Positions 1,693 to 16,878 are shown, counted from the first letter of the stretch. The stretch: DNA of 64,000 bases from Methanomassiliicoccaceae archaeon (GCA_040776945.1 JAXGZN010000002.1:864001-928000), one strand, 5' to 3'. The notes: a model not told the origin generated them from the sequence alone. Numbers and translations are program-made.

Positions 1693-1730
1693 CCCCCCTT
1701 CCAGCAGGCCTCGGGCAGCAGGCCAGTCTG

Positions 1731-1743
1731 GTAAACTTTATAT
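1731..1743 (+). promoter_or_regulatory. TATA box of tRNA-Gly
   Basis: TTTATAT at 1737-1743, about 28 nt upstream of the tRNA 5' end. Confidence 0.6.
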
Positions 1744-1770
1744 GAGAGGAGTGAATTCACAGTCGCACAA

Positions 1771-1846
1771 GCGGGCGTAGTGTAGTTGGTTATCACTTGA
1801 CCTTGCCAAGGTTAGAACACGGGTTCGAATCCCGTCGCCCGCACCA
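1771..1846 (+). tRNA. tRNA-Gly(GCC), CCA encoded, no intron
   Basis: Acceptor GCGGGCG/CGCCCGC-A-CCA; anticodon arm TGACC-TTGCCAA-GGTTA; T arm GGGTTCGAATCCC. Confidence 0.96.
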
Positions 1847-2186
1847 CCAACCATATCCAGGTGGGTCCATTTTTTTCAATCAGGGGCGGATTGGAACCTG
1901 GCTGCGTCTGGCTCGGTTTTCGGGGTATTATCGCCACCGTCCAAACACGCTGTGCTTCTGCGATCCTCTGCTCGTTCTTCTTGCGCGCGTTGTAAGTCTC
2001 GGTCGTCTTGCTCGTGGCGTGCCCCATCATCTTCGATGTCGAGTCTAGCGGCACCCCTTGGTCGAGGCGGTTCTGACCGAAGGTCCGGCGGCAGACCCGG
2101 AGGTCGAAGTCGACCCCGACCTCTTCCTTGACGATGGACTGGAGGTCCGTCGTCCCGTTGATCGAGAACTGCCCGCTATGCCGATT
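1812..2186 (-). pseudogene. Tyrosine recombinase/integrase C-terminal remnant overlapping the tRNA 3' half
   Basis: Manual translation gives ...VKEEVGVDFDLRVCRRTFGQNRLDQGVPLDSTSKMMGHATSKTTETY... (box II R, GH, catalytic-Tyr region). There is no N-terminal half, and the frame ends antisense inside the tRNA (VVRATGFEPVF). Confidence 0.8.
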
Positions 2187-3047
2187 CTAGCCATCTAAAT
2201 TCTTTAAAAACTGATTGACCAGTACATAGCTTTCAGCTTGTGTCCTCCTCTTCTGTTCCTCATCAGCACTATAAAGAAAATTGCCAACCCACGAAGGTCC
2301 TTCAGCCTCAATTGAACGGAACTTTTGCATAATATTTCCTATACCTATTCTCATACTTGGTTCAGCTAGGAATGGTCGGACAATTTGACTTACATCACTC
2401 GGGCTTTCCAAACATTGAGAGATTACCGTAAAAATATCGTAAGCGTCCTTCTCTTTATACCGCTCACCCAGAACTACACCCTTCATACCAATGCAGCCCG
2501 CGATATCAAGCATCTGTATCTGAGCGCTAGATTCACCATCGCCAGGAAGGGTTCCTTGAATCTCTTTTCTAAAGTTGTGCTGAAATGCGATGTCACATCC
2601 ATTTGCAATTCTCGCTGGAAGCGAAGGTTGAACCTTCCTATGTCTGTGATTATGCAATTCTTCTGTCCCACATGTGAGAAAATCAATAGAAATCAGATAT
2701 TCCCGTCCATCGGACCTGGAAGTAATTCCTCTCTCAAAACTGAATAAGATGGGTTGCCCATCCATCCCATGTCGCATCGAATAACCACGTTCCTGAATCA
2801 GGTCGATGATTGTGGCGTACTCATCGTTCCTTACTAATTCAGGGTTAACCGCAATGTCAATATCAATTGATCCAACATGAGGGAACCCCCCTCTGCCGAA
2901 TTCCTCTATCAGGAAAAACGGTGCCCAGCCTCCAACAAGCACTAGCGCATCCCTATAGGAGTATAATGTCAGAGATAACTCCAGGAGCGCAGATAAGGAT
3001 GCATCAGTTATGCCTCCACCATAGTCTGTAGATAACCTAGGTGGCAC
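2187..3047 (-). CDS. AbiEii-like / Pol-beta superfamily nucleotidyltransferase (type IV TA toxin)
   Basis: LVLVGGWA, HVGSIDID and late K...KDAYDI motifs; lies 2 nt downstream of the AbiEi-like gene. Confidence 0.75.
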   Translation of the reverse strand: MPPRLSTDYGGGITDASLSALLELSLTLYSYRDALVLVGGWAPFFLIEEFGRGGFPHVGSIDIDIAVNPELVRNDEYATIIDLIQERGYSMRHGMDGQPILFSFERGITSRSDGREYLISIDFLTCGTEELHNHRHRKVQPSLPARIANGCDIAFQHNFRKEIQGTLPGDGESSAQIQMLDIAGCIGMKGVVLGERYKEKDAYDIFTVISQCLESPSDVSQIVRPFLAEPSMRIGIGNIMQKFRSIEAEGPSWVGNFLYSADEEQKRRTQAESYVLVNQFLKNLDG

Positions 3048-3049
3048 TT

Positions 3050-4075
3050 CTAAACCCCCAAGATCTTTTCTCGGATGGCATCGGCCTGCTCCCTACCCCT
3101 TTGTGGGTAATTGAAAAGGTCCAGATAAAGTTGAAGATTGGACACAACTTTTACACCATCAATTGTTTGTGTGTTTCTTAATATTCCATCATCTCTGGGA
3201 GTTATCAAGTAGACGTTACCCCCGAACTCTACTGGCTCCAATTCAAGGGCGTTCTTCAATGCGTCATTTTTGTTAACATAAATGTATGTGTCCGTTGACC
3301 TAACCACAGGGAGGACCAGTCGAGCTGCAGCCCCTAGAGTGATCGCATAATCGCAATCAGGGAGTTGCCTCAGTTTTGGAAATATTTCATCGTAGCCCTT
3401 AAAAGGGGAGTAGTATCCAGTGATTTTTTGATCGTTATACCTATAGCTACTGACCAATAGATCTAGCAAGCCTGAAGGGTCGGAAAGCTTGATCGCTCCT
3501 CTCCTTTTATCAACATAATTATATGTCTCCAGGCCATCCAGAACCTTATAAACCTGAGCGAGACTAACTGATGAACTATCTGAAAGCTCCTGCATCGTCC
3601 ATTCCTTTTTCGGATCATTTAACATGCACCTTATTACCCAGTTACTTTTTGTAGATAACAAGTTTTTTTGCTTTCTCTCAATTTTATGTTTGTTATCATT
3701 TCCCCAGAGGTTGATAAAAATACTATCGAATTTTAAATAGGCATTTCCAGAAAGATCAATGCATCCAATATTGGATCTCTCACAAAATTCCTTCCCGCGC
3801 TCACTAATAAAGGGAGCGACCAGGATGGGGTAGAAATTGTCTGTAGACCTATTGCTCAATCTGCCGACATATTCCGCAATAACTCTGGGCTCTCCAGATG
3901 ATTTGAACTCAAGATATAGGGTTTTTTTCTTTTTTCCTATCCTCAAGTTGGCTACTGAGTCTGCATAGTCATCTCTTTCGAGTTTAACTTTATCGCTAAC
4001 CCACTCTAATTTTCCTACCTGAGACAACAACTTTTCAACAGTTTTCTTATACTCGATTTCTTCCATATTTTTCAC
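3050..4075 (-). CDS. AbiEi-like antitoxin / transcriptional regulator (DUF2186/AbiEi_2 type)
   Basis: N-terminal restriction-fold-like part (LYLEFK...VAPFIS...IDLSGNAYL), wHTH (WTMQELSDSSSVSLAQVYKVLDGL), C-terminal VSNLQLYLDL...RGREQA. Confidence 0.75.
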   Translation of the reverse strand: MKNMEEIEYKKTVEKLLSQVGKLEWVSDKVKLERDDYADSVANLRIGKKKKTLYLEFKSSGEPRVIAEYVGRLSNRSTDNFYPILVAPFISERGKEFCERSNIGCIDLSGNAYLKFDSIFINLWGNDNKHKIERKQKNLLSTKSNWVIRCMLNDPKKEWTMQELSDSSSVSLAQVYKVLDGLETYNYVDKRRGAIKLSDPSGLLDLLVSSYRYNDQKITGYYSPFKGYDEIFPKLRQLPDCDYAITLGAAARLVLPVVRSTDTYIYVNKNDALKNALELEPVEFGGNVYLITPRDDGILRNTQTIDGVKVVSNLQLYLDLFNYPQRGREQADAIREKILGV

Positions 4076-4079
4076 TTAT

Positions 4080-4142
4080 ATTGCTATTTTCACCAATTGG
4101 TAAAAAATCGTATAGGTTATAAAGTATATCAATTATAGCAAT
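4080..4142. promoter_or_regulatory. Inverted repeats in AbiE-like promoter (putative autoregulatory operator)
   Basis: Perfect palindrome ACCAATTGGT at 4092-4101 flanked by T/A runs; ATTGCTAT 4080-4087 and ATAGCAAT 4135-4142. Confidence 0.45.
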
Positions 4143-4242
4143 CGAAATTACTGCTACAAACACTACTTCTCCACGATATGCATGAAATGAGGAAAGGTGG
4201 TGAGCTAATTGCACCTTAGAGTTAGAGAAAAGTGAAGACGAT

Positions 4243-4857
4243 CTAGATGAGTGGGTTCGAACGCACAATCCTTTGAATGTCTGAAGCAAATTCAACCATG
4301 TCGCCAAAGTCAAGCAGCATGAACCCATCTTGGCACGATATCGCTTCCATTTTTTGTTCTGATTGCTCAAGGTCCGCCCGAGTGTACCTCTTAGATAGGA
4401 CTACAATTTTTTTATAAATGCCCTTATCGCGTTTCCAGACCTCTTCATTGAACGGACCGGAAATGATTGCATCTATGATATTGAGCAATCCTATGATTGA
4501 TCGGTTCCGCGATCTTCTGATAGCTTCCCATGAGTACCCAGAGAACACAATTATTGAGATTTCGCGCTTATGGAGTCTCTCGCACATGTGAAGGAGCGCT
4601 TCAGCCTGCTGGAACGGCTCACCGCCGGAGATTGTGACCCCTTCACATTGGGTCCTCTGACACAACTCGACCAGTTTATCTGCGAACATTGTATGCTCCA
4701 TGAGGTGCCTAGGCTCGTGAGGTTGGTAAGCCGGGTTCGCACAGCCTGTGCATCCAAGGGTGCAACCCTGAACCCAAACCACGACCCTCCTCCCCGGCCC
4801 ATTGATTGTGCTACCAGCCGCAAGGGCCGCCACATTGAGCAATGGTTCCAGTGCCAT
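4243..4857 (-). CDS. Small radical SAM protein, NrdG-like (4Fe-4S single cluster)
   Basis: NGPGRRVVVWVQGCTLGCTGC (CxxxCxxC), GVTISGGEPFQQ, FSGY, IDAIISGPF. Confidence 0.9.
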   Translation of the reverse strand: MALEPLLNVAALAAGSTINGPGRRVVVWVQGCTLGCTGCANPAYQPHEPRHLMEHTMFADKLVELCQRTQCEGVTISGGEPFQQAEALLHMCERLHKREISIIVFSGYSWEAIRRSRNRSIIGLLNIIDAIISGPFNEEVWKRDKGIYKKIVVLSKRYTRADLEQSEQKMEAISCQDGFMLLDFGDMVEFASDIQRIVRSNPLI

Positions 4858-4858
4858 C

Positions 4859-6715
4859 TCACTCCTCTAAGAGTTCGAAGACTATGCCTTTCCCATCCTC
4901 AACGCAGCTGGCCCTGATGCTTCGTCCCTTCATCAAGAACTGCTTGTTCTCGAATATGTATCTGGCCAGGGGGTCGATAAGGTCCCTCTCCGCCGCATTA
5001 AGCAACCCACGCCCACCGTGGGAGATGTCGGCCCTCTTCTCCAAGTAATCATACAGCCTTTGGTCGAGCACTAGTCTTACATCATACTTGGATTGGATCG
5101 TCTCCTGTAGGGGGGCCAGCTTCTTTTTGATAATTTCCCGCCTAAACTCCTCACTGTTGACGGGATTGAAGACGATGATGTTCTCCCCTATTCGGTTGAG
5201 GAGCTCAGGACGCCTTAGTTCCTTGTTGAAATGGTCCTTTACCTTGTGACGGAACTCTTTCTCCAGGTCGCAACCTTCCACCTCAATGCCAACCTCAGAG
5301 GCTCCGATATTGCTGGTGAATATGATGATCGTTTCGGAGAAGTAGGCGGTCACGCCCTTCCCATCGGTGAGCCTCCCATCCTCAAGGATCTGCAGGAACT
5401 TATCAAGGATTCGCGGATGGGCCTTCTCTATCTCGTCGAAGAGAAGCACGCTGAACGGTCTTTCCAGGACGGCGTTGATCAATTGCCCGCCTTCCTCAAA
5501 CCCAACATAGCCGGGCGGTGGGCCGATCAGACGCTGGTCGGATTCCTCATGACTGTACTCGCTCATGTCGAAGCGTATGCATGCGTTCTCATCTCCGAAC
5601 AAGAATTCCGCAGTGGCCTTGGCGAGCTCGGTCTTACCCACTCCGGTCGGACCGACGAAGAACAGGGCGCCTTTTGGCTTTGACATCTTCGAGGAGTGCT
5701 GTATTCCCGATAGGCCCATGGCTGCCTTGATGATGGTGTTGACCACGTGTTCGACGGCCTTGTCCTGTCCGACCACCCGCTTTTTCAGGGAAAGATCTGC
5801 GTTGCGTAGCTTCTCCTGAGAAAGCTCTTCCCAGGGCGACCTCTTCTCGCCAAAACGGTAGAGGTTAAGCAGTCTCTCCGGAGTAAGACCTCGGTTGTCC
5901 CGCGCCAGCCTGACCATCTGGATCAGATCTACGGTTTTCATCCCTTCAGTCATATCGGCCAGTTCATCCATCGCTTGGTCTCTTGTCTTGTCTTGAGTGG
6001 CCTTTAGGTTCAGGTCTTCTAGATGACGCTCAAAGAACCCTATCCTGGTCTTCTTCTCCGGGACTCCCAGGTTGAACAATTTGATCCTAGGGTCTGGCTG
6101 ATAGAACGAGGGCGGAATAGATGCTAGATTGGCTGTTATTAACATGATCGTAGCCGGAGGGGTGTCGGTCACGTTCCCTTGTCGGCCGAGACCCTCGCGC
6201 CCGCACATGAGCATCGATAACCGCTCCAACAAACAGCGGTCCTCTTGGGCCAGGGGCCTCTGTACCGCACCGAACTGGTAGTCGGTCCAATCCACTATTA
6301 TAGCCACGGCCTGATCATAATAGGGGAGGGCTTGTTCAAGGGCTCCGACCAGATCGCCGATTTCCTTGAGCGATGGGAGGTCATCGTCCAGGCCTTGAGG
6401 TTCACCCGCATCGTACTTTTCGCCCTCCACATCTTGTGTCAAGCTCCCTCTCCACCAAGTGTTGAACCTCCGTCTTTCATCATCGGACCGGAATTTTAGG
6501 CCGACAATGGGGTTCCAGACGCCCACCACAGAAAAGCCACTATCGTGTAAGGTCCTGTCGAGGTAGTGAGCCAGGAGCACATACCTAGTACCCTCGTCCG
6601 TTTTAATTGTGAACTCATCGCGAGTGTTTCCGTAGACAACAATCCCCTTCCTGAACCTGGCCTCCCTTGCCAAGTTCTCAAATTGCCGCTCCATTTTAGA
6701 AACGTCTCCTGCCAT
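4859..6715 (-). CDS. ClpB-like AAA+ ATPase (degenerate first AAA module, intact D2 module)
   Basis: VVGQ, GPTGVGKTELAK, RFDMSEY, GPPPGYVGFEEGGQL, LLFDEIEKAHP, GRLTDG, RPELLNRI. The N-half lacks canonical Walker motifs and a Clp N-domain. Confidence 0.9.
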   Translation of the reverse strand: MAGDVSKMERQFENLAREARFRKGIVVYGNTRDEFTIKTDEGTRYVLLAHYLDRTLHDSGFSVVGVWNPIVGLKFRSDDERRRFNTWWRGSLTQDVEGEKYDAGEPQGLDDDLPSLKEIGDLVGALEQALPYYDQAVAIIVDWTDYQFGAVQRPLAQEDRCLLERLSMLMCGREGLGRQGNVTDTPPATIMLITANLASIPPSFYQPDPRIKLFNLGVPEKKTRIGFFERHLEDLNLKATQDKTRDQAMDELADMTEGMKTVDLIQMVRLARDNRGLTPERLLNLYRFGEKRSPWEELSQEKLRNADLSLKKRVVGQDKAVEHVVNTIIKAAMGLSGIQHSSKMSKPKGALFFVGPTGVGKTELAKATAEFLFGDENACIRFDMSEYSHEESDQRLIGPPPGYVGFEEGGQLINAVLERPFSVLLFDEIEKAHPRILDKFLQILEDGRLTDGKGVTAYFSETIIIFTSNIGASEVGIEVEGCDLEKEFRHKVKDHFNKELRRPELLNRIGENIIVFNPVNSEEFRREIIKKKLAPLQETIQSKYDVRLVLDQRLYDYLEKRADISHGGRGLLNAAERDLIDPLARYIFENKQFLMKGRSIRASCVEDGKGIVFELLEE

Positions 6716-6718
6716 TGG

Positions 6719-7588
6719 TCATCGCCTCGCTTCTCTTACCTGCGCTGCGCCATGCGGCAGGTCCTTTGCTCCCTTCTTTATCTTGTAAGGATTGTGCCAG
6801 TTGAACTGCTCGATCTCCCCATCGGTGCCATCTGATCTGAGCCGCTCTAACACTGCATCCACAGCGTCCTTGCATGTTTCACCGATGAATCCATCTAAAT
6901 CGAAACCAATCCTGCACTGGTCGTTTATCTCGAACCTTACCTTCTTGCCGGCAGGCGTGGTCGCGAGGATTTCCACACGTCCATCCTTTAAAACCGGTCC
7001 GGAGATCACATAGTTGGAGGCGCGAAGGCCACCCAGCAATCGGCGGACAAGTTCCTTTCGGACCTCTTCCTGCAGGTCTCTCGCCTGAGACTCTCTTGCG
7101 CCGTTCAGGGTCTCCTCCACCATCGACTCAAGAGTGACCAACGACAATGGGACGTCCGTCATTTTTTCTAGCCGAGCGATATTACTTTGATGCGCCTTCT
7201 GGCCTTCCTTATTCTTGATGGAAATGGATTTTAGTTGGTTGATGGTCCTGGAAAGGAGCTCGTCCACTTTCCTTCGCTCCTCGCCCCACATTTGCTTCTT
7301 CGCCCTCGCCTCGGTCTGGATTGCGCTCACCTGAGCGATAGCGAGACGGGCGCTCTGTAGCGCTTGGTCTGGAGACAGAGACATCTGACTATACGCTTCA
7401 CCAACCAGCTTATCCAGCTCTGATGACTCACTAACAAAACCAGACGTGGAGAGGTTTTGCTTCCCTTGTTCCAAAAGTGCTGCCGTCCGTTCCAGTAAGG
7501 CCTGACACTCTTCCCTTACCTGGGACCTCCGAGCCTCTTCGCGCATCCTCTCCATTTGCTTTACGCTGATGTATCCCCCACCGCTCAT
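6719..7588 (-). CDS. Coiled-coil protein with C-terminal DUF2997-reminiscent motif
   Basis: Long helical E/Q/R/K-rich stretch, then FDLDGFIGETCKDAV; ATGA overlap with the upstream gene. Confidence 0.7.
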   Translation of the reverse strand: MSGGGYISVKQMERMREEARRSQVREECQALLERTAALLEQGKQNLSTSGFVSESSELDKLVGEAYSQMSLSPDQALQSARLAIAQVSAIQTEARAKKQMWGEERRKVDELLSRTINQLKSISIKNKEGQKAHQSNIARLEKMTDVPLSLVTLESMVEETLNGARESQARDLQEEVRKELVRRLLGGLRASNYVISGPVLKDGRVEILATTPAGKKVRFEINDQCRIGFDLDGFIGETCKDAVDAVLERLRSDGTDGEIEQFNWHNPYKIKKGAKDLPHGAAQVREARR

Positions 7589-10320
7589 GTTCTTCCCCCA
7601 ATCTTGCTGAAATCGCCGAGTTGAGGAATGATGACCTCGCCATCGACAATTGAGTACTTTATCAACCGAGAGGCCACCTTTGTCGCCATATCGGGGTGCT
7701 CCCTGAAATGGTCGCGATAAAGGTCGTTAGATAAAATATACATATTCTTGTCCAAGGCCATCTGGATCACGTGATGATCATCGTTCTGCCCGGACGGTGC
7801 CTGTATCAGATACTTTTTTCTTTCGTTAGAGAAGTACCTCTTCAGAGCTTCGAATTTCTTCTTGCCGGCTTTATCTTTAGTCAGGGTACTCTGAATGCTC
7901 GAACCGATGACGATGAAAACTTCATCACAGGAGTATTTGCCCAATAGCGCTTCGAAGGTCCTTATGACGTTTTCCACGCTAACAGAGCCATCATTCTCAT
8001 TGTAGCGGGCAATGTTGCTGCCGTCCACGACCACTCGAATCCCTGAGACTGGATTCTTGTTGGCATCCATCTTATTTGCCACGATTTTGTCCCAGACGCC
8101 GAGCGTGCGGAGATTTTTCTCGAATCGCTTTGGCTCCCGGACCGAAGTATCGAAGACGGAAACAATGTCGCTATCGGTTATCTTTACCCTCTCAGTAAGC
8201 GCGCTACGCCTGGCCGAGATGATGAAGGATAGCCAGAGTTCGACGTCTCGATCATCTTTCGGACTTAACGAGCGCGAAAGCTGAGTAAGGTGATTGCTTA
8301 GAATTGCGTCAGGCATCATCCCGGCTCTGTTGAGCTCCTCCAGGTTGTTCATCATGGTGGACAATTGCCGCTCGTTTAGTGGTTTGGGCAGCTCCCGTGG
8401 GGGCGACACCAGTGAACTTAGATCGATCTGAACTCCCATTCCGGTCAAGGCCTCATGAATCGAGCGTACCACGACCCTGGTTTCAGGATCTAGTATATCT
8501 AAGGGCTCCTCGAAAATGCGCTTGATTATGTTTGTAAGAGAGAGCTTATCGACCTCTGCTCCGAGCCTGTGCATCTGCACGCAGAGTTTCAGCGCTTCCT
8601 GGGCTTCCTTTCCACTAACTTCGACCTCGCTGATGACCTCACAAGCCTTGGAGGCAAGGAGCATCCTCTGATCGGGTGATTGTATCTTGGAAAGTTGTTC
8701 GACCACTTTTGGTCCCCACTTGATGTTGTCCCTAGAGGTCAAACCTAGAATGGATCCAGCTCTCAAAGAGACGATCAGCTGAACGTATCTATCCCATAAG
8801 GGAGATGAGGCGAAGATAGCACCCCTCTTCTCCAGCACCTCCACCTGCGCGGCCATTCGAGCATCGAACTTGGATTGCTCCTTCGGACGCTTCATCTCTA
8901 TGGAGGACAGGTACAGGTTTGAGTTACCCTTCACTACGCGTTCGGGCAAGGCAATCAATGAATCCCAATTGGCCATGTTCATGTAGCGTTCCCAAATGGC
9001 CAGCTCAGCTTTGGACATCTCTGCTGCGCCTCTAGATGGTTCCATCTTTATGAGGAGCCGTATGATGTCATCAAACTCGTCGTTCGACGGAGCAGAGGCA
9101 CTGATGGCCTCTAGGCACCTCGGCAGATTACTCTCGGAAGGATTGATTACCAACAGAGCTTGGGCCAAACCTTTGTTCATCGGAAGGCGAGACATGCTCA
9201 TGGCGATCTCTTTCTTTATGCTATCCGCTGCCTCTATCCCCTGCTCAGCAAAGACGGGGACGCCGAGACCCTCATCCTGCAGGCTCAGTGCACTAATCAC
9301 TTGTTTATCAGTGGCTAGGATAACTCTACCAGGTTGCTGTAGGTCCAGATGAATTATCTGCACATCATTCCTAGTCACTCCCTTGTCGCCTTCTGGAGTC
9401 TTCGACGGTACGAACACAGTCTTGGGCAATAAGGAAGGATGTTGCATCAGTATGCTCCAAGCCTCTCCGAACAGGGCGCACCATTGAGCGCCCCTTAGGT
9501 AATCGCCCAGGTTGACATTTCCGGCATGCTGGAGCTGACAATCGTCGGGTAGCTCACTGGAATAGGTTTGTCTCCATGATAGGCGTGGTTCAGCATCCCT
9601 CCTCAACGACAGGATGGCTTGTTGAAGCGCCCCATTCTCCCTTGCCACCTTTAGGACAGACTTATCAAGAGTGCTCCGATGATCATCACCCACTGGTGTG
9701 TCGCTGCTGCGGAAGATTACTTTACCTGGGATTAGTAGGATATCCCCTATGACCTGAAGTTTTATCTGAGCACAGGCGGTGGTCGCATTGCTGTAAACCT
9801 GCTCTCCTTTTTCCAGTATCTTGCAATTCTTCAGATGGTTGTAGATTATCCCAAGGGGCGGTTCCTCAACACCCGCGACCCATTCTTCCCCAATATCTCT
9901 ATTGTTTTTGAATATCCTTGAGCCGGCATACCACTCCTTGGTTCCCGGATCAAACAGTATGCTATCCTCCACAATCCTTGGATCACCTAGTATGCGACCT
10001 TTCTCGAACATCCCCCGTCCCTTATCAGTGACCCGATAGAATCCAGGTGTGGTGCGCTGGAGGGCACCAATATCCTCAAGTTGCTTGGCCGCCTCCATCA
10101 GGAATGTCTCATCACCAACTCCAAGTCTCGTAGCTATCTCGCTCACCGACGGAGATGGCTTGATTTTGACCAGCGGAGCCAGGATTGCCCATTCCAACAG
10201 ATTGACCTTTCGGTCTCTCCTGAGGTCAGCCTTGAAGTAAGCCTGAATAACGGGATGTTCGAATTTGGCACCCGCAATTATGGTAAAAGGAGTCCAAGCC
10301 ACACGCTTAGGCTTATCCAA
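7585..10320 (-). CDS. Large protein: N-terminal wHTH, helical middle, C-terminal Regnase/Zc3h12a-like NYN(PIN) ribonuclease
   Basis: VVVDGSNIA...NDDHHVI...ILSNDLYRD with acidic catalytic residues intact; N-terminal SVSEIATRLGV...YRVTDKGR winged helix. Confidence 0.8.
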   Translation of the reverse strand: MDKPKRVAWTPFTIIAGAKFEHPVIQAYFKADLRRDRKVNLLEWAILAPLVKIKPSPSVSEIATRLGVGDETFLMEAAKQLEDIGALQRTTPGFYRVTDKGRGMFEKGRILGDPRIVEDSILFDPGTKEWYAGSRIFKNNRDIGEEWVAGVEEPPLGIIYNHLKNCKILEKGEQVYSNATTACAQIKLQVIGDILLIPGKVIFRSSDTPVGDDHRSTLDKSVLKVARENGALQQAILSLRRDAEPRLSWRQTYSSELPDDCQLQHAGNVNLGDYLRGAQWCALFGEAWSILMQHPSLLPKTVFVPSKTPEGDKGVTRNDVQIIHLDLQQPGRVILATDKQVISALSLQDEGLGVPVFAEQGIEAADSIKKEIAMSMSRLPMNKGLAQALLVINPSESNLPRCLEAISASAPSNDEFDDIIRLLIKMEPSRGAAEMSKAELAIWERYMNMANWDSLIALPERVVKGNSNLYLSSIEMKRPKEQSKFDARMAAQVEVLEKRGAIFASSPLWDRYVQLIVSLRAGSILGLTSRDNIKWGPKVVEQLSKIQSPDQRMLLASKACEVISEVEVSGKEAQEALKLCVQMHRLGAEVDKLSLTNIIKRIFEEPLDILDPETRVVVRSIHEALTGMGVQIDLSSLVSPPRELPKPLNERQLSTMMNNLEELNRAGMMPDAILSNHLTQLSRSLSPKDDRDVELWLSFIISARRSALTERVKITDSDIVSVFDTSVREPKRFEKNLRTLGVWDKIVANKMDANKNPVSGIRVVVDGSNIARYNENDGSVSVENVIRTFEALLGKYSCDEVFIVIGSSIQSTLTKDKAGKKKFEALKRYFSNERKKYLIQAPSGQNDDHHVIQMALDKNMYILSNDLYRDHFREHPDMATKVASRLIKYSIVDGEVIIPQLGDFSKIGGRT

Positions 10321-13300
10321 GCTCCTCCCCCCTTACATAGCCATAGCCGCTCTCCCGCCGCTCGGCCATACCTATAATATCGCGGTAAGAGTAACGGTCC
10401 TCAGTCTGTCCATCGCAGCATATTTTAACCTTCACTTCTTCGAACGATTCCCTTGAGCCTACCACAAAGAGCAGCGTTCGGGCTCGAGAGATGGCGACAT
10501 TGATTCTCCGAAAATCTTTGACGAATTGCGTCACCCTTCCATTGGGGGGCGAGGAGACCAGGCTCGCGATTATGATGTCTCGTTCCATGCCCTGGAATCT
10601 GTCTACCGTCCCTACTCTCAGATCGAACCCCTGGAGCTTCTTCTCTTGCTTCAGTCGATTTACGAGGTCCCACAGCCTTCTCTCTTGGCCGGCGTAGAAG
10701 GAGATTATTCCTACTCCGATCGTTTTGTCCGTCGGTAATGAGGTCTTCTGGGCGCCCAATTGTCTCAATATGCGGCCAATCAGCTCTACCTCATAATCGT
10801 TGTATCTTGAACGGAAGCGGCCCTCTTCCTTGCCCTCAAAGTTACGGACGGGTTTACCGCCTATCATCCTATAGGACGATTCGACCCAAACTAGGTGGGC
10901 GTTCTTGGAAGCCAGTTCACCATGCTCGTTACGCAGAGAGAACTCGTTCTTGCGCTCGTTGTCAGGGTCTTTCAAACCCATTGTGAGCTTGTAACCGCTT
11001 GGATAAAACTGATTGATGGCGCCCATGATGGCTGTGTGCATCCTATACTGCTTTGTCAAGCGAGCCTTCAGTACATCCTCGGCTTGAGTGAACATTTCTT
11101 CAAAATATGATGTTGTCACCAGCTTCTCGTAACGCTTGAGCTTCTGATAAATCTCCTCGCTGCTCACGCTCTCATCGAAGGTCATTTCTTCTTCAGTGAG
11201 ACGGAACGAAGGCGGCAACTGGTGGTGGTCACCAACCAGTATGATCTGCTTGCCAACCAGCATAGGCATGAGCAGTTCTGGTGGGGTTGCTTTTGAGACC
11301 TCGTCGATGATCACCAGATCGAATTCTTTCTGGGAACCCCAGAACTTGTACTTTCCAGTCTCTGAACAGGTGGCCCCGACAATGTTGGATTGAGCCAGGT
11401 AGACTTTCCTGAGGCTTTCTCGGTCAATGTCATCGGTGGCTCCCAGCCTCTCCTTCCACTCCTTCTGGACCTCGTGCCATTCTTCCGAAAGCCCTGCTCC
11501 TTCCTTGAGCGTTTCAAGAGCGTGCCTGAGTCGCTGATGCCATGACAGGTCCCGATAGGAATCGTGGGGATGGGCGAGCTCGGTCTGCTCCTTTAGATGC
11601 TGTTCATATACTGCGGTTATCGACAGCAAGTGGGCAGCACGCTCCTTCTTCCAACCTTCCACCCTCTTTGCCAGTTCGCCTTCCTCGACCTCTGATATCA
11701 CAAGCACTTCTGAGGCGCGTTCCTTTTCCTTCAAGGCGCTTTCGAGCTCCTTTCTATCGGAATCCGCAATCGTTTCAAAACCGCCCTTAAGGCCAGTCAG
11801 ATGATTGCGCTGGGAGGGCGAGATAGTGAGGTCGAAAGTTTGTAGTTGTGTCAGAAGTGCTTTTAACTCTGCAAGGGCCGGCTCCAACTTGCGGTTCGGA
11901 CCGAGAGAGGATCGTAGTTCAGCTAAACGATGTTCTGATTCCTCTCCCCCCTGCAGATGATAGAGGTCGATGCAATCAATAAGAATTGGGTCAAGCGAGC
12001 GGAGATGATTGCGCCAGGCGTCGTTCACGGTACGATCATCTGCCCCCTTAAGGTCCAATAATTTCCGATTTATCTCACCCAGCTCTTTCTGTGCTGTTGA
12101 TACCTGGACACAGTTCTGATCGATCGCGTCTGCAATCAAATTTACGAGCACACGCTTCCTAGCATCTAGATCCTTTGCTTCCGCGGATTTGGTCTCGGCT
12201 AACGGAATGAGGGATGATAATGCCTGTACCTTGTCGATTGCAGTCGTAGCATGCTCCTTCAGCTCCATGTTCTTGACCAGGATGACTGGTAGCACATCCT
12301 TCACCCAAGTGGAGTCATCAGCATGCTTCCTGCCCAGCAAGCCAGAGCATAACGATTCTAGCAATCGCGGCTCCAACTCAGCCAGTCTTTGAATATCGCT
12401 GATACGTTGGGGGAGCCTGCCTTCTCTCACTAACCGGGATAGAAGTTCGACATTTCGCTCATCCAGTGCTACCTTTTCCTGAATTTTCAGTACCCTGTCC
12501 GATATGCTTTTCAAGTTTGATTTCTGTGCTTCGATTGCTTGGCTTGACACCTTTTGAGCCTGCACCATCCCCTTTTCCACTGGCAAGTTCTTTTCGATCC
12601 AATATGAGGCGACCTCAGCCGCTTTTATCTGGCGAATCAACTGACCTTGTGTCTCCACCGTCATAGTTAATGAGGATCTGACCCCAGTGAGCCAGTGCTG
12701 AACCACATTGGCTTCGACGAATGGCTCCCCGTCCTCAGTGATGTTTCTTTTAGGGCCAAGCCGGATTGGCCTCATGTTCACGGCGAACTCCTTCCTCCCC
12801 CCCATTAGCCTGCTGAGGGCGTTGTCGACGGCAAGGTTGGTTTGGGATGCAATGAGCACCCTGCCTCCCCTCTGGGTCACCTGATTGCAGAGTTCGGCGA
12901 TGACAGTGGTTTTTCCAGTCCCTGGAGGCCCCTGTATAAGGCAGAGATCGGGGGTGTTGATCGCTTTTTTGAGGGCCTCCATCTGGCCTTCGTTCAACCT
13001 ATCTTCAATGAGCGTCGATTTCTGAATGCCTTCGTCCCGCGTTGGTAGCCTTGCCTGCCCCACGTCGAATATGAAGTCCTCGAGGTGAGGGTTTGCCGAT
13101 TTTCCCTCCTTCAATCGATTTATGGCTTTTTGTTGAAGGGCTAGGGGCAGTTCGTCCAGGGCTACCGAATTAACCAGTAAGCCTGTAGCGGGCAACGCCA
13201 ATAGTTGGTCATCTCTCTTCTGCTCTTTGTCCTCCATCTCATCTAGCGCGAAGATAGGGTCAAGGTCGACTCGGATTATTGACTGGACATTATCACCATT

Positions 13301-14107
13301 CTTTGACTTGGAGGGAGGACGAGCTTTCTGTCCTGCCGCAATCTTACCCAAACGAATGGGCTCCCCGTCTTCCTCCGACCAGATCCAATTTCTACTTTCG
13401 GGGATGGCGTGGTCGAGGACGTAGACCTCGTCCTCACAACGGAACGCCTTATGGGAGTTTTCCGATCTGTTCTTCACCGATAACTCGATTTCCGCCGTGA
13501 CCGGTCCGGTCCTCACTAGATTTCCGTAAGCTATCCAAGCCCGCCGTCTTTGAACTACATCGAGGCTTTCATCGAGATATGCTTCCCAACTCTCGAGGCG
13601 CCTCTGAAGTTCATCTCGCCTCGGGGGAAGGGCGGTCAGGAAATCGATGTCAGAGGAGAACATGAATGAGTTATCTTCACCAGATTCAGACTCGAGGACC
13701 AGGACAGTGCATGTTATCAAGCCCTCCTTATCTGTGCTCGGCCTCTTTGACACGATGGAATAATACGCCTTTATTATGGTTAGACGACCGTTCGTTCTCA
13801 CACATTCGAAAACCAGGTCGTCCTCCATTCTCATGAAAGCCGAGTGGAGACTGCTCATCGGATCTAGACGGAATCGTAGTCGGCAGAACTTTTCATTCTT
13901 CTTCTCCCCCACGAAGATGTTTTCGACAAGGAAACGAGTTGAGGCGCCGTTAAGGGAGCGAAGTTTCTCCACTATCTCCTTTCCATCTTTTTGATCGACC
14001 TTTATCTTTTCTAGGTCCAATAACAGGACCAACCTTCTGGTCAATTCTCTCTGCCTGATCCCTTGATAATCTTGAGCTACATCTCCAAAGTCGATGATCG
14101 ACGCCAA
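10313..14107 (-). CDS. SF1 helicase, UPF1/DNA2/NAM7-like (AAA_11/AAA_12) with long coiled-coil insertion
   Basis: LNEGQ, QGPPGTGKTT, SQTNLAVDN, IIDEVSKA, VGDHHQLPP, QYRMH, GTVDRFQGMERD, RRINVAISRAR; TTG start after GGGGA. Confidence 0.92.
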   Translation of the reverse strand: MASIIDFGDVAQDYQGIRQRELTRRLVLLLDLEKIKVDQKDGKEIVEKLRSLNGASTRFLVENIFVGEKKNEKFCRLRFRLDPMSSLHSAFMRMEDDLVFECVRTNGRLTIIKAYYSIVSKRPSTDKEGLITCTVLVLESESGEDNSFMFSSDIDFLTALPPRRDELQRRLESWEAYLDESLDVVQRRRAWIAYGNLVRTGPVTAEIELSVKNRSENSHKAFRCEDEVYVLDHAIPESRNWIWSEEDGEPIRLGKIAAGQKARPPSKSKNGDNVQSIIRVDLDPIFALDEMEDKEQKRDDQLLALPATGLLVNSVALDELPLALQQKAINRLKEGKSANPHLEDFIFDVGQARLPTRDEGIQKSTLIEDRLNEGQMEALKKAINTPDLCLIQGPPGTGKTTVIAELCNQVTQRGGRVLIASQTNLAVDNALSRLMGGRKEFAVNMRPIRLGPKRNITEDGEPFVEANVVQHWLTGVRSSLTMTVETQGQLIRQIKAAEVASYWIEKNLPVEKGMVQAQKVSSQAIEAQKSNLKSISDRVLKIQEKVALDERNVELLSRLVREGRLPQRISDIQRLAELEPRLLESLCSGLLGRKHADDSTWVKDVLPVILVKNMELKEHATTAIDKVQALSSLIPLAETKSAEAKDLDARKRVLVNLIADAIDQNCVQVSTAQKELGEINRKLLDLKGADDRTVNDAWRNHLRSLDPILIDCIDLYHLQGGEESEHRLAELRSSLGPNRKLEPALAELKALLTQLQTFDLTISPSQRNHLTGLKGGFETIADSDRKELESALKEKERASEVLVISEVEEGELAKRVEGWKKERAAHLLSITAVYEQHLKEQTELAHPHDSYRDLSWHQRLRHALETLKEGAGLSEEWHEVQKEWKERLGATDDIDRESLRKVYLAQSNIVGATCSETGKYKFWGSQKEFDLVIIDEVSKATPPELLMPMLVGKQIILVGDHHQLPPSFRLTEEEMTFDESVSSEEIYQKLKRYEKLVTTSYFEEMFTQAEDVLKARLTKQYRMHTAIMGAINQFYPSGYKLTMGLKDPDNERKNEFSLRNEHGELASKNAHLVWVESSYRMIGGKPVRNFEGKEEGRFRSRYNDYEVELIGRILRQLGAQKTSLPTDKTIGVGIISFYAGQERRLWDLVNRLKQEKKLQGFDLRVGTVDRFQGMERDIIIASLVSSPPNGRVTQFVKDFRRINVAISRARTLLFVVGSRESFEEVKVKICCDGQTEDRYSYRDIIGMAERRESGYGYVRGEELG

Positions 14108-14529
14108 TTAATCCCCAATGAGGATAATTATACGACTATTAAAATAACTAAGCGACTCGTGTTTAAATTTAGGATTCTGAAGCATTGGTGGCACCAACGT
14201 CGATTCGCCTAGATGTGGTTATTAAGTTCCTAAATTATCGGTCTTGTTGCAAAAGTCATCTGACGAATTCTGAAGCCTATTTATCATTTATTATCCATAT
14301 CTCTATCAAAATATAATAGTGTGGTCCAACCTATTGCCAGTTGTTCAGAAAGACGATAGGTTGGTGACCACGATGACAGCAATTACGAGCGAAGTATTCA
14401 CCTATGTGATAAGTGCTCCCCGCGAAATAGTCGCGCGTTCATGCCAACCAACAGGGCCACGCTGATCGAATGTCATGAGCGCGATATGCCTCTCGCCCCC
14501 AAGCCCGTTCTTTTTGCAACGGCAACCCT

Positions 14530-14860
14530 TTAGCTATCCCTCGACCGATCGCTCCTGGGGAAGAGCGCCTGCGGGATCATCGACAGCATGTACGGATGCC
14601 TCAGCACGTACGACGGGCGGAGATAGAACGATACGTAGGCCTTGGCCAGCTTCCTCACCACCGCCTTGCGCCCGATGCCCATGCGGTCGCAGTCGATGAC
14701 CGGTTCCACGGCCGTGAAGCGGCTATAGTCCTCTGTCGACAGTGGATCATCGGCTCTCAGCTCGTCGAATATCAGCGTCCCCGGGAAGGGGCCAATGGAG
14801 GTGTCCTCGATCATTTCCGGCCCATGATCACGCCCGATGGGGAGACGGCAGCCGATCACG
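14530..14860 (-). pseudogene. C-terminal fragment of a B12-binding-type radical SAM enzyme
   Basis: PFPGT, YSRF and AYVSFYLRP motifs typical of these C-termini; no CxxxCxxC upstream. Confidence 0.55.
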
Positions 14861-15111
14861 ATGCTCGTTCGGCCAGCCATCGCCGACATGGCGAAAGGCA
14901 AGCGGCGGCGAACATCGCTCCGCTCAAAAGAGATATGCTACTTGCCGACCATATAGTGCCTGGCGTCAACGATCTGGTGCCTGACCGGGCGCAAGATCTT
15001 GTTCGAGCCGATGCAGCGGAACGGTCGTTAAGCATGACCGTTGTGGAAGCCGCGCCTTCCGATCGGAGATAGACGGTCCCGGACCTTCGATGGTCCTGAG
15101 GGTGATAGAGC

Positions 15112-15771
15112 ATGCGAGGCGAAAACGACCAGAAATGCCACTGGAACTCAACATATGAACGGTCGCAGGACTTCTTCGGCAAGGAGCCGAGCGAGCTGGC
15201 CGTCAGCGCGCTGCCGACGCTGAAGGACCATGGCGTGAGGACCGTCCTGGAGCTCGGCTGCGGACAGGGGCGGGACACCTGGTACTTCGCCAGGAACGGC
15301 ATGGCCGTCACCGCCCTGGACTACTCCGAAACCGGGGTCTGCCAGATGCGAGATGCCGTGGAGAGGGAGCGGCTGGACGATGTCGTAACGGTCATGGTAC
15401 ACGACGCCCGGGCCCCTCTTCCCTTCCCCGACAGCGCTTTCGATGCCGTCTACTCGCACATGTTCTTCACCATGGAGTTCTCCGAAGAGGAAGTATCCAG
15501 GATGCTGGGCGATTGCCGCAGGGTGCTGAGGCCCGGAGGACTGAACATATACTCGGTGCGCAACGACCACGATCCGCACTACGGCAAGTTCGAGCCTCGA
15601 GGCAAGGATATGTGGAAGAACCCCCTGGGCTTCGTGGTGCACTTCTTCACCGAGGAGAAGCTCCGCGAGCTCTCCGCCGGTTATGAGATATTGTGGATCA
15701 AGGAGTTCGATGAGCCTTCACCGGCGTACACGAAGAAGCTGTACGAGGTAGCGCTCCGAAGGCCCGGGTGA
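15112..15771 (+). CDS. Class I SAM-dependent methyltransferase
   Basis: VLELGCGQGRD, FDAVYS, LRPGG. Confidence 0.9.
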   Translation: MRGENDQKCHWNSTYERSQDFFGKEPSELAVSALPTLKDHGVRTVLELGCGQGRDTWYFARNGMAVTALDYSETGVCQMRDAVERERLDDVVTVMVHDARAPLPFPDSAFDAVYSHMFFTMEFSEEEVSRMLGDCRRVLRPGGLNIYSVRNDHDPHYGKFEPRGKDMWKNPLGFVVHFFTEEKLRELSAGYEILWIKEFDEPSPAYTKKLYEVALRRPG

Positions 15772-15774
15772 GCC

Positions 15775-16878
15775 TTGCATCTCGATAGGGAGCAGGAACT
15801 GTCGCTGGCCGGAGAACGGGGACCGGCGGCCGAATGGGCCATGGGAGTCCTGGTGAAGCTCGGCGATAGGGCGGGCTCTTCCAGGATGGTCCCGGTGAGC
15901 TCCGTGCATGTCCCCGGCTGGTGCGAGGCCGGTCCATCGGACGCCTGCAGGTGGCTGACCTCGTCCGCCGGTCAGGGCACCGTGCCGCTCACTGCCAACC
16001 CCGGAGGACCGGACGATGATGGCACCCGGGAGCGGAAGCAGGCATTGGAGAACTGGCGGTCGCGGCCCTGCTACTCGTTCACCTGCGCACCGTATCTTTC
16101 CGGGAACCGTCCTTCAAGAGGCCAGGTGATCGCGTGGGGAGGCCGCGCGGCCTCCGCTTTCGCCAACTCGATCATCGGCGCGAGGACCGAGGTGGAGAGC
16201 TTCGAGACCGCCCTGGCATCGGCCATTACCGGACTGACGCCGGAGCGGGGGCTCCACTTGGAGGAGAGGCGCCGGATGTCCGTCGCCGTCACCGTCAAAA
16301 AAGACCATGGCGGGAAGATCGACCACCCCTTGCTCGGCTGGAGAATATCTAGAGAGCTGGATGGCCGGACGCCCCTGCTGTGCGGGATATCGCCGACCTT
16401 CGACGAGGCCAAGAGGCTGGCCTTCGCCATAAACTCTCGGGCAGGCATCCCGCTCTTCGGAATAAGGCGGGAGGCCGCCCCTCCCGCCGGCACGGAGGCC
16501 GTGGAAGTGAGCTTGGATGACGAGATCCTCGACCGGCCGGAGAGACCGGACCTTGTAATCCTGGGATGCCCGCATTTGTCCGAGCAGGACATCAACCGAT
16601 GGTCCAAGAGACTGGCGGACAGGGTGCCGGGCAGGGCGGAGGTATGGTTCTTCACATCCCGCCTGTGCATGGACAAGTGCCCCACCTTCGGCGCTGTGCT
16701 GCGCAAGCGGGGCCGGGTGCTCGCCGACCAGTGCCCCCTGGGCCTGATCAGGGAGCTAGCGGGCAGGGTCGTGGCATGCGACAGTCCCTCGCTGGTCGAG
16801 TGCCTCCGGCGAAAGGGCGTGAGCGCGTCATATCTTGCCGAGGACGAGCTGGTCGCTCTTCTGGTCCGAAGGGACTAG
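15775..16878 (+). CDS. Aconitase X (DUF521) large-subunit-like protein, divergent
   Basis: MHLDREQE...GERG start, TCAPY, FANSIIGART, ITGLTP, LGCPHLS, DQCP. Confidence 0.75.
   Translation: MHLDREQELSLAGERGPAAEWAMGVLVKLGDRAGSSRMVPVSSVHVPGWCEAGPSDACRWLTSSAGQGTVPLTANPGGPDDDGTRERKQALENWRSRPCYSFTCAPYLSGNRPSRGQVIAWGGRAASAFANSIIGARTEVESFETALASAITGLTPERGLHLEERRRMSVAVTVKKDHGGKIDHPLLGWRISRELDGRTPLLCGISPTFDEAKRLAFAINSRAGIPLFGIRREAAPPAGTEAVEVSLDDEILDRPERPDLVILGCPHLSEQDINRWSKRLADRVPGRAEVWFFTSRLCMDKCPTFGAVLRKRGRVLADQCPLGLIRELAGRVVACDSPSLVECLRRKGVSASYLAEDELVALLVRRD

Follow-up and report, generated by a model that had tools for sequence, protein, structure and literature searches.

A mobile five-gene row in an archaeon pairs an MkoA-family helicase with an MkoB-type adaptor bearing a predicted NYN ribonuclease domain

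We analysed a 64,000-nucleotide (nt) stretch of DNA from a Methanomassiliicoccaceae archaeon (GCA_040776945.1 JAXGZN010000002.1:864001-928000), referred to here as the window, with positions counted from its first letter. On the minus strand of the window lies a row of five tightly packed open reading frames (ORFs), an operon at 4243-14107, whose first gene encodes a helicase of the MkoA family and whose second encodes a protein that joins an MkoB-type N-terminal domain to a C-terminal NYN nuclease domain. Our favored reading, which we consider probable though far from settled, is that the row works as an immune cassette that moves horizontally and shares its ancestry with type I Mokosh. Mokosh is among the commoner anti-phage systems. 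The operon and its leader, with protein lengths in amino acids (aa), are as follows:

14108-14530, minus strand: leader, 423 nt, non-coding, AT-rich (43% GC), 5' of gene 1
10313-14107, minus strand: gene 1, 1264 aa, MkoA-family UPF1-like superfamily 1B (SF1B) helicase
7585-10320, minus strand: gene 2, 911 aa, adaptor-bearing effector with a C-terminal Zc3h12a-type NYN domain
6719-7588, minus strand: gene 3, 289 aa, coiled-coil protein with a small beta domain, matches no known family
4859-6715, minus strand: gene 4, 618 aa, two-tier AAA+ protein with a ClpB/ClpC D2-type unfoldase module
4243-4857, minus strand: gene 5, 204 aa, radical S-adenosylmethionine (SAM) protein of the small glycyl-radical-activase type

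An earlier note on this DNA had drawn the unit at 7585-14107. These limits were too narrow, as three more genes belong to the unit and the operon reaches 4243. Successive genes are joined by an 8-nt overlap (1/2), a 4-nt ATGA overlap (2/3), a 3-nt gap (3/4) and a 1-nt gap (4/5), and given these junctions the five genes are translationally coupled. The overlap of the helicase gene with the start of the 911-aa protein, which the note had already pointed out, was confirmed: the opening codons of the gene 2 frame contain the helicase stop codon (TAA, 10313-10315); this frame starts with TTG at 10320-10318 and is preceded by a GGGGAGGAG stretch. The leader is likely the promoter region and holds one sigma-70-like site at 14340-14313, which is a candidate only. 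Promoter scanning found 14 sites, which is not in excess of shuffled sequence (11.2 +/- 3.3), and a terminator scan likewise gave no excess over shuffles.

Gene 1 encodes a helicase in which the SF1B core motifs I-VI are intact (Pfam AAA_11 2.5e-44, AAA_12 2.6e-35), with Walker A at residue 393, motif II (DEVS) at 935, GDHHQL at 959 and RecA2 at ~999-1219, behind an N-terminal region (residues 1-370) without known family. The best sequence matches in the PDB were DNA2 (1.6e-27), IGHMBP2 (6e-25) and UPF1 (3e-23). Among PADLOC models, MkoA (PDLC03920) matched at 3e-109, aligning residues 164-1250 with profile positions 423-1099 of 1112. A second MkoA model (PDLC03921) matched at 6.5e-92, and MkoC matched at 6e-31 through the helicase core only. 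No kinase family was found among the 21 Pfam hits, and MkoA profile positions 1-422 were unmatched. The CH (zinc-knuckle) domain of UPF1 was likewise absent from the Pfam hits, and the PDB alignments to UPF1 span the helicase core only. We rejected the NCBIfam family "PLuB system helicase-like protein" as an assignment for gene 1, since it scored 163.8 bits against a cut-off of 999 and aligned with the helicase core only.

The earlier note had singled out a coiled-coil of roughly 400 aa inserted between motifs Ia and II of this helicase. We found an insert of ~420 aa there (RecA1, residues ~470-905): in the DNA2 alignment a step from 468 to 908 in the query corresponds to one from 718 to 738 in DNA2, and Walker A is separated from GDxxQL by 566 aa. 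The insert is not peculiar to gene 1, however. A gap of 419-749 aa sits at the same position in nine of the nine MkoA-family helicases examined, so the insert is a trait of the MkoA family. Its heptad score was 0.47, a value reached by none of 100 shuffles (0.37 +/- 0.03), and its Pro+Gly content is low. The heptad score is a crude home-made measure and, with the low Pro+Gly, the sole basis for calling the insert a coiled-coil, which is plausible but not proven.

The C-terminus of gene 2 carries the Zc3h12a-type signature that the earlier note had read there. Pfam matched RNase_Zc3h12a at E 7.4e-13 (residues 762-899), ZC3H12B was matched by sequence in the PDB (E 5e-5), and the signature motifs VVVDGSN, NDDHH and LSNDLYRD are present in the translation. 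Across 20 family members, D766, N769, D847, D848, N865 and D866 either never vary or are kept in at least 90%. An AlphaFold2 (AF2) model built from the alignment of these 20 sequences (pLDDT 85.1, pTM 0.50) orders the protein as an adaptor (~12-137, a beta-hairpin plus a winged helix), two small domains (156-360), an all-alpha solenoid (362-753) and the NYN domain (760-900). The note had proposed a fold comparison with Regnase-type proteins, and Foldseek aligned the modelled NYN domain with ZC3H12B/C, Regnase-1 and KHNYN over ~150-160 columns at target-normalised TM-scores of 0.59-0.74. Gene 2 is a predicted endoribonuclease with a complete set of catalytic residues. It lacks a CCCH zinc finger, as the NYN domain is the sole Pfam match and the protein ends 11 residues after it. 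It also gave no PLDc match in Pfam (i.e., no phospholipase D (PLD) domain) and no PADLOC MkoB match at E <= 0.01, and it matched no other PADLOC or NCBIfam model.

The whole-model comparison raised a different reading of gene 2, namely that it is a PRORP-like tRNA or RNA processing enzyme with the helicase as its RNA chaperone. Plant PRORP1 and PRORP2 were the best whole-model Foldseek hits (E 6e-7 to 3e-5, ~480-550 columns), both they and gene 2 place a helical-repeat domain before a NYN metallonuclease, and the family members P0007 and P0011 have weak Pfam PRORP matches. However, target-normalised TM-scores of 0.22-0.25 with root-mean-square deviations above 20 Å point to a resemblance in domain order, not to a shared architecture; gene 2 has extra N-terminal domains, sits in another genomic setting, and is rare and mobile. 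RNase P of bacteria and archaea is RNA-based. We consider this reading highly improbable.

It is the N-terminus of gene 2 that connects it to Mokosh. Profile alignment with hhalign matched residues 19-137 of the NYN-type family to residues 35-152 of MkoB with a probability of 97.1% (E 6e-11). An exhaustive phmmer search of 1.84 billion representative sequences returned 90 hits at E <= 1e-3. About 18 of the 90 are full-length relatives (890-1016 aa) with the same N-terminus and an NYN domain, except for one that has PIN_4 instead. Three others, of 620-654 aa, align via their N-terminal 115-130 residues only (phmmer ~2e-4); PADLOC identifies all three as MkoB (2e-27 to 7e-37), and Pfam finds PLD in two of the three. 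Because both methods link the N-terminus to MkoB, we describe gene 2 as an MkoB-type adaptor joined to a different nuclease. The suggestion of a Mokosh-type architecture in which PLD has been swapped for NYN held up in the comparisons made here, with MkoA at 3e-109 in one gene and an MkoB N-terminus without PLD in the other. Within the gene 2 family the adaptor and NYN domains are the better conserved parts (mean pairwise identity 0.30 and 0.33, respectively, versus 0.17-0.19 for the middle domains).

The same searches brought up single-chain proteins of 1530-1547 aa (P0043, P0047) that combine PD-(D/E)XK, an MkoA-like (1e-27) superfamily 1 helicase and a C-terminal NYN domain, and a 1615-aa protein (P0070) with a BrxC/D-like N-terminus and NYN at its C-terminus. 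These fusions suggest that NYN recurs as a terminal effector on large NTPases.

The survey of effector swaps that the note had called for yielded further variants on the adaptor. A cyanobacterial plasmid (locus L052) carries a plain two-gene Mokosh with a 1626-aa helicase and a 594-aa PLD protein. On a plasmid of Nostoc sp. C052 (L053; NZ_CP040275.1, 4277-11025), an MkoA-like helicase is followed by a fusion of the MkoB N-terminus to DarT (Pfam 9e-16) and then by an ADP-ribosylglycohydrolase, all three genes lying between pglX and pglZ of a BREX-1 locus. Its predicted domains make L053 a Mokosh-like system that sits inside BREX and has an effector for ADP-ribosylation of DNA. A further locus, L054, adjoins Qat and a dGTPase. 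Since PLD (L052), DarT (L053), PIN_4 (plasmid loci L046-L050, described below) and NYN (the window) all occur on the MkoB N-terminus, the adaptor appears to be a plug for at least four effector types.

We then asked how widely the five-gene row is conserved. A locus search of 185,579 species genomes with a 10-sequence gene 2 alignment returned 45 loci. Three of them match beyond the NYN domain, and all three have a helicase directly upstream. A Spirochaetaceae metagenome-assembled genome (MAG; L001) has all five genes intact and in the order of the window, with identities to the window's proteins of 36% for the helicase (full length), ~22% for gene 2, 31% for gene 3 (E 2e-47), 63% for the ATPase and 43% for the radical-SAM protein. 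A Methanocorpusculum MAG (L002; OY782579.1, 7687-16124) holds an archaeal row in which the order is kept but the genes have decayed: the helicase matches query residues 42-738 only, the ATPase is split three ways and gene 2 is interrupted as well, which reflects either a pseudogenised system or assembly errors. The third, a 1765-bp Methanospirillum sequence (L006), contains a helicase C-terminus followed by a gene 2 N-terminus. In addition, contigs of 9795, 5041 and 7985 bp appear both for the gene 2 relatives P0002-P0004 and for gene 3 homologues, which suggests that these genes share contigs.

Plasmids revealed a second version of the row. Searching them by tblastn with gene 2 gave no match, while the N-terminal half of gene 4 found 11 records. 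Five of the six distinct plasmid loci that we fetched carry the five-gene row (Photobacterium, Moellerella, Acinetobacter, Polaromonas and Leisingera; L046-L050), which RefSeq labels as AAA domain protein, PIN domain protein, hypothetical, AAA family ATPase and 4Fe-4S single-cluster protein. The sixth (Geminocystis, L051) has a related ATPase without the other four genes. In L046-L050, gene 2 ends in Pfam PIN_4, which we take to be the family that holds the SMG6 PIN domain, and not in NYN; its N-terminus matches MkoB with a probability of 95.2% (E 3e-8). PADLOC MkoA matched the helicases of L001, L047 and L049 at 1e-110, 7e-102 and 8e-102. Seven intact loci, namely the window's and those from Spirochaetota and from Alpha-, Beta- and Gammaproteobacteria, share one gene order and have tight or overlapping junctions. 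A maximum-likelihood tree was built from 10 helicases chosen among the loci collected here; it sets the seven from five-gene rows apart from three others (PLD, DarT and one more) at a support of 99/97, with the NYN-type and PIN-type helicases each in a clade of their own.

These data bear on whether the row is one system or two. Genes 3-5 could be an independent module that merely travels with a Mokosh-like helicase-NYN pair: canonical Mokosh functions with two genes, according to passages of the original report (Millman et al. 2022, 10.1101/2022.05.11.491447); in L052 and L053 the trio is missing beside the helicase and its adaptor-bearing effector; the Geminocystis ATPase stands without the other four genes; and other candidate systems also have ClpB-like ATPases (DolB 5e-22 and PDC-M37B 3e-32, in the AAA core). 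However, the order and tight junctions are the same in the seven intact loci across phyla and the order persists in the decayed archaeal copy, the trio was always accompanied by the helicase and a PIN-fold gene 2 in the loci examined, with the PLD and DarT variants lacking it, and the helicases of the five-gene rows form their own supported group. We therefore regard two neighboring systems as unlikely and treat the five genes as one cassette.

Gene 3 of the cassette consists of long helices (9-190), a small beta-sheet domain (194-263) and a disordered tail (AF2 pLDDT 79.6), with P212, G214, G236, C239, W264, N266 and P267 invariant. It matched no family in Pfam, PADLOC or NCBIfam; its fold had no PDB match at E <= 1e-3, and its Atlas matches were only "hypothetical" clusters. 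A profile search found at least 206 clusters at E <= 1e-3 among 7999 candidates scored, including Pseudomonas, Shewanella, Acidithiobacillus and Comamonas; the named ones are labelled "hypothetical" or "coiled-coil domain-containing". The C-terminal domain is homologous between the NYN-type and PIN-type rows. Within it, G214 lies at a hairpin tip in the loop P-[AS]-G-x-x-[AV]-x-F, which resembles the glycyl-radical loop of GrcA (RVSGYAVRF) at a few positions and is a lead only. We rejected gene 3 as a GrcA-like glycyl-radical domain because hhalign gave a probability of 0.1%, i.e., the profiles are unrelated.

Gene 4 is ClpB-like in its C-terminal half, which has a Walker A motif (GPTGVGKT), a GYVG pore-loop region and a D2-small domain (Pfam AAA_2 9e-50, ClpB_D2-small 4e-5; ClpB D2 in the PDB 4e-63). 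No Walker A motif is present in the N-terminal half (1-295), which in its Atlas model looks like the N-terminal halves of other AAA_2 proteins of ~610-660 aa; this half had no match in phages. In contrast to ClpB/Hsp100, gene 4 does not have two active nucleotide-binding domains, an N domain and an M domain, and it scored 276.9 bits against the ClpB equivalog cut-off of 1232, covering profile positions 552-842 only. It shares the D2-type AAA_2 core with Dodola DolB and PDC-M37B but aligns with them over that core only and differs in its N-terminal half, and the partners DolA and PDC-M37A had no match in the 7 island proteins or the 12 relatives scanned. When genes 3-5 of the Moellerella plasmid were compared with 5426 E. 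coli genomes, only the clpB core was found, and no genome covered at least 80% of the query.

Gene 5 resembles the PflA and NrdG activases in its small size and in its GPGxR loop, CxxxCxxC and GGEP motifs (Pfam Fer4_12 1.5e-28; NGPGRR, C32-x3-C36-x2-C39 and GGEP), all three of which are kept in eight of eight homologues. Its best NCBIfam match was NrdG (TIGR02491) at 83.2 bits, below the cut-off of 126.1, as all 18 NCBIfam hits were below theirs, and it matched the PFL-activating enzyme at 8e-5 over residues 14-93. Unlike PflA and NrdG, it comes without a glycyl-radical partner: the Gly_radical domain had no Pfam match in any operon protein. Acinetobacter and Polaromonas, two of the PIN-type hosts, are aerobes.

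Three observations concern the neighborhoods of related cassettes. Directly downstream of the L001 cassette (12160-12939, minus strand) is a protein combining a LabA-type NYN (PF01936, 2e-41) with OST-HTH/LOTUS. Beside the Acinetobacter cassette (L048, 11706-13688) is a row annotated AAA family ATPase, radical SAM protein and hypothetical, and a second radical SAM gene (L046, 1-493) flanks the Photobacterium cassette.

In the window, the cassette lies on a low-GC island of ~12.7 kb whose edge is marked by a tRNA-Gly and a recombinase remnant. The GC content of this stretch is 44-52% versus 57-64% for the remainder of the window, and that of the operon is 51.6% versus 58.8% downstream and 62% upstream. 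The other features of the region are:

1771-1846, plus strand: tRNA-Gly(GCC), island border
1850-2186, minus strand: remnant of a tyrosine-recombinase C-terminus (~110 codons), integrase remnant beside tRNA-Gly
2187-4075, minus strand: two island genes, 42% GC, 341 aa and 286 aa
14530-14901, minus strand: 123-aa ORF without Pfam match, abutting the far island edge

The tRNA was the sole match in an Rfam scan of 1-16000, and no att-type direct repeat of the tRNA end was found at the far island border among 19 repeat families. The 341-aa protein has weak matches to TrmB (E 5e-4) and AbiEi_2 (E 8e-4), both below cut-off, and the 286-aa protein matches no family but has a GS-x-D-x-D nucleotidyltransferase-like motif, so these genes may be an AbiE-type pair adjoining the cassette. 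The 123-aa ORF is perhaps a piece of a gene that the island insertion disrupted. The low GC, the tRNA-Gly, the integrase remnant and the AbiE-like pair make the context of the cassette a mobile one. Farther along (15112-16878, plus strand), a methyltransferase ORF has a sub-threshold match to the selenoprotein family MduS and ends at a TGA (15772-15774), after which the frame stays open into the next ORF. Selenocysteine read-through of this TGA is unsupported, because read-through did not extend the MduS match (profile 4-224 versus 4-214) and the part downstream matches a family other than MduS.

A mobile setting would also suit an addiction or abortive module that stabilises an island or plasmid, in which a NYN or PIN toxin is held by gene 3 as inhibitor and the unfoldase removes or refolds that inhibitor. 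PIN-fold RNases are classic toxins (VapC), the intact loci other than the window's are all on plasmids or short contigs, integrases, transposases or toxin-antitoxin genes lie near the cassette in the window and in L046-L049, and the island holds the AbiE-like pair. Yet a 1264-aa helicase, an effector of 800-900 aa and a radical-SAM enzyme exceed the needs of a toxin-antitoxin pair, the adaptor ties gene 2 to a helicase family with members whose anti-phage activity is proven (passages in 10.1101/2022.05.11.491447), and the relatives L053 and L054 sit within BREX and beside Qat, respectively. This reading is unlikely, and we continue with that of an immune cassette.

How closely does the cassette resemble known Mokosh? 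Like type I, it has a helicase that belongs to the MkoA family not only by its core but also by the region ahead of it and by the large RecA1 insert, a gene 2 with the MkoB N-terminal domain (a criterion of this analysis, outside the published definition), a helicase gene that comes first with its stop overlapping the effector start, and a mobile or defence island setting. Unlike type I, which has two genes, it is a row of five coupled genes conserved as such, and ~600 aa of extra domains separate the gene 2 adaptor from the nuclease. Type II (MkoC, a single-chain helicase-PLD protein) likewise couples a UPF1-like helicase to a nuclease, and the P0043 and P0047 fusions are its NYN analogue, but the window's system is split into genes and uses an adaptor.

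Several observations weigh against placing the cassette with Mokosh or against RNA as its target. The effector nuclease is NYN (PIN_4 in the plasmid relatives) and not PLD, and the helicase lacks the Ser/Thr kinase domain that passages in 10.1101/2022.05.11.491447 ascribe to the type I helicase subunit; since nuclease, kinase domain and gene number all differ, the cassette is outside the published Mokosh definition. Genes 2, 3 and 5 have no PADLOC model match at E <= 0.01. Direct alignment of NYN-type with PIN-type gene 2 reached a probability of only 25%; the two are related by way of MkoB. The NYN version was rarely found (4 clusters in a word-indexed search, ~18 full-length representatives at 50% identity), and with one of three genome loci decayed it could be of marginal use. 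The context survey is small: its 9 loci, each having a helicase plus a gene 2 with the adaptor, were hand-picked from search hits. Finally, RNA is proposed as the target from the folds, and DNA2 is the top PDB match of gene 1; UPF1-like helicases such as DNA2 work on DNA.

The earlier note had likened the pair to UPF1 and Regnase-1, as a helicase-licensed RNase. As an analogy this is apt: like UPF1/Regnase-1 and UPF1/SMG6 of nonsense-mediated mRNA decay, the cassette combines an SF1B UPF1-like helicase with a NYN or PIN endoribonuclease fold. We considered whether the likeness goes further, i.e., whether the pair is a prokaryotic counterpart of UPF1-dependent mRNA decay by descent, or a housekeeping RNA quality control system. 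The helicase matches UPF1 at 3e-23 and the nuclease superimposes on Regnase/ZC3H12 domains as given above, UPF1 licenses Regnase-1 by unwinding stem-loops (PMC7145602), and the resemblance of MkoA to Upf1 was remarked in the report of Millman et al. (passages in 10.1101/2022.05.11.491447). Against this, the distribution is sporadic, island- or plasmid-borne and of low GC; the CCCH finger and the UPF1 CH domain are both absent, as is a ribosome link; the nearest relatives of both proteins are the defence proteins MkoA and MkoB; and the effector has been exchanged for PLD, DarT and PIN, which argues that the NYN-helicase pairing is neither ancient nor fixed. Such a counterpart, whether by descent or by housekeeping function, is very unlikely, and we treat the resemblance to UPF1/Regnase-1 as only an analogy.

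Judged from its predicted domains, the cassette is most likely an RNA-targeting defence system. Gene 1 would be an ATP-driven UPF1-like helicase that acts on invader RNA, or on the RNA of replication or transcription intermediates, by binding and unwinding it. The gene 2 adaptor would dock on the helicase, and the alpha-solenoid and other fast-evolving middle domains could hold RNA or sense a phage cue. The helicase would then feed RNA to, or license, the metal-dependent NYN endoribonuclease, and RNA cutting would stop phage development, possibly at a cost to the cell. That genes 1 and 2 act as a complex fits their conserved coupling together with two published patterns: nuclease-NTPase defence systems generally co-purify as complexes (passages in 10.1101/2025.07.10.664194), and Mokosh depends on the ATP site of its helicase as well as on its nuclease site (passages in 10.1101/2022.05.11.491447). 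The trio might set or reset the activity of this helicase-nuclease complex; for example, gene 3 might be a scaffold or inhibitor that is remodelled by the unfoldase and modified by the radical-SAM enzyme.

A bolder reading, which we rate as a long shot, is that the trio is a radical switch for the immune nuclease and the MkoB N-domain a general plug for PLD, DarT, PIN and NYN effectors. Gene 5 would act at the glycine on the hairpin tip of gene 3, installing a glycyl radical or another radical-derived modification; presentation or recycling of gene 3 would fall to the ClpB-type unfoldase; and helicase-RNase activity would thereby be tied to redox state, SAM state or infection. If true, prokaryotic immunity would for the first time be seen to use glycyl-radical-type chemistry. 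Our literature searches found nothing joining a glycyl radical activating enzyme with phage defense, no defence system combining Mokosh-type parts with an unfoldase and a radical-SAM enzyme, and no description of the five-gene row or of a NYN or PIN Mokosh; preprint supplements and the newest DefenseFinder models were outside their coverage.

Together, these data show that the Mokosh effector subunit is modular, with a conserved N-terminal adaptor that carries PLD, DarT, PIN or NYN. Such modularity makes the adaptor the likely contact with the helicase and suggests RNA as a likely target in one branch or more. In the five-gene branch, a Mokosh-like core is accompanied by a protein unfoldase and a radical-SAM enzyme. 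The parallel with UPF1/Regnase or UPF1/SMG6 would be a second helicase-nuclease likeness between bacteria and animals after the piRNA parallel of Mokosh, and again an analogy. The PIN-type version is not rare, and since its plasmids belong to culturable bacteria, the proposed function is directly testable.

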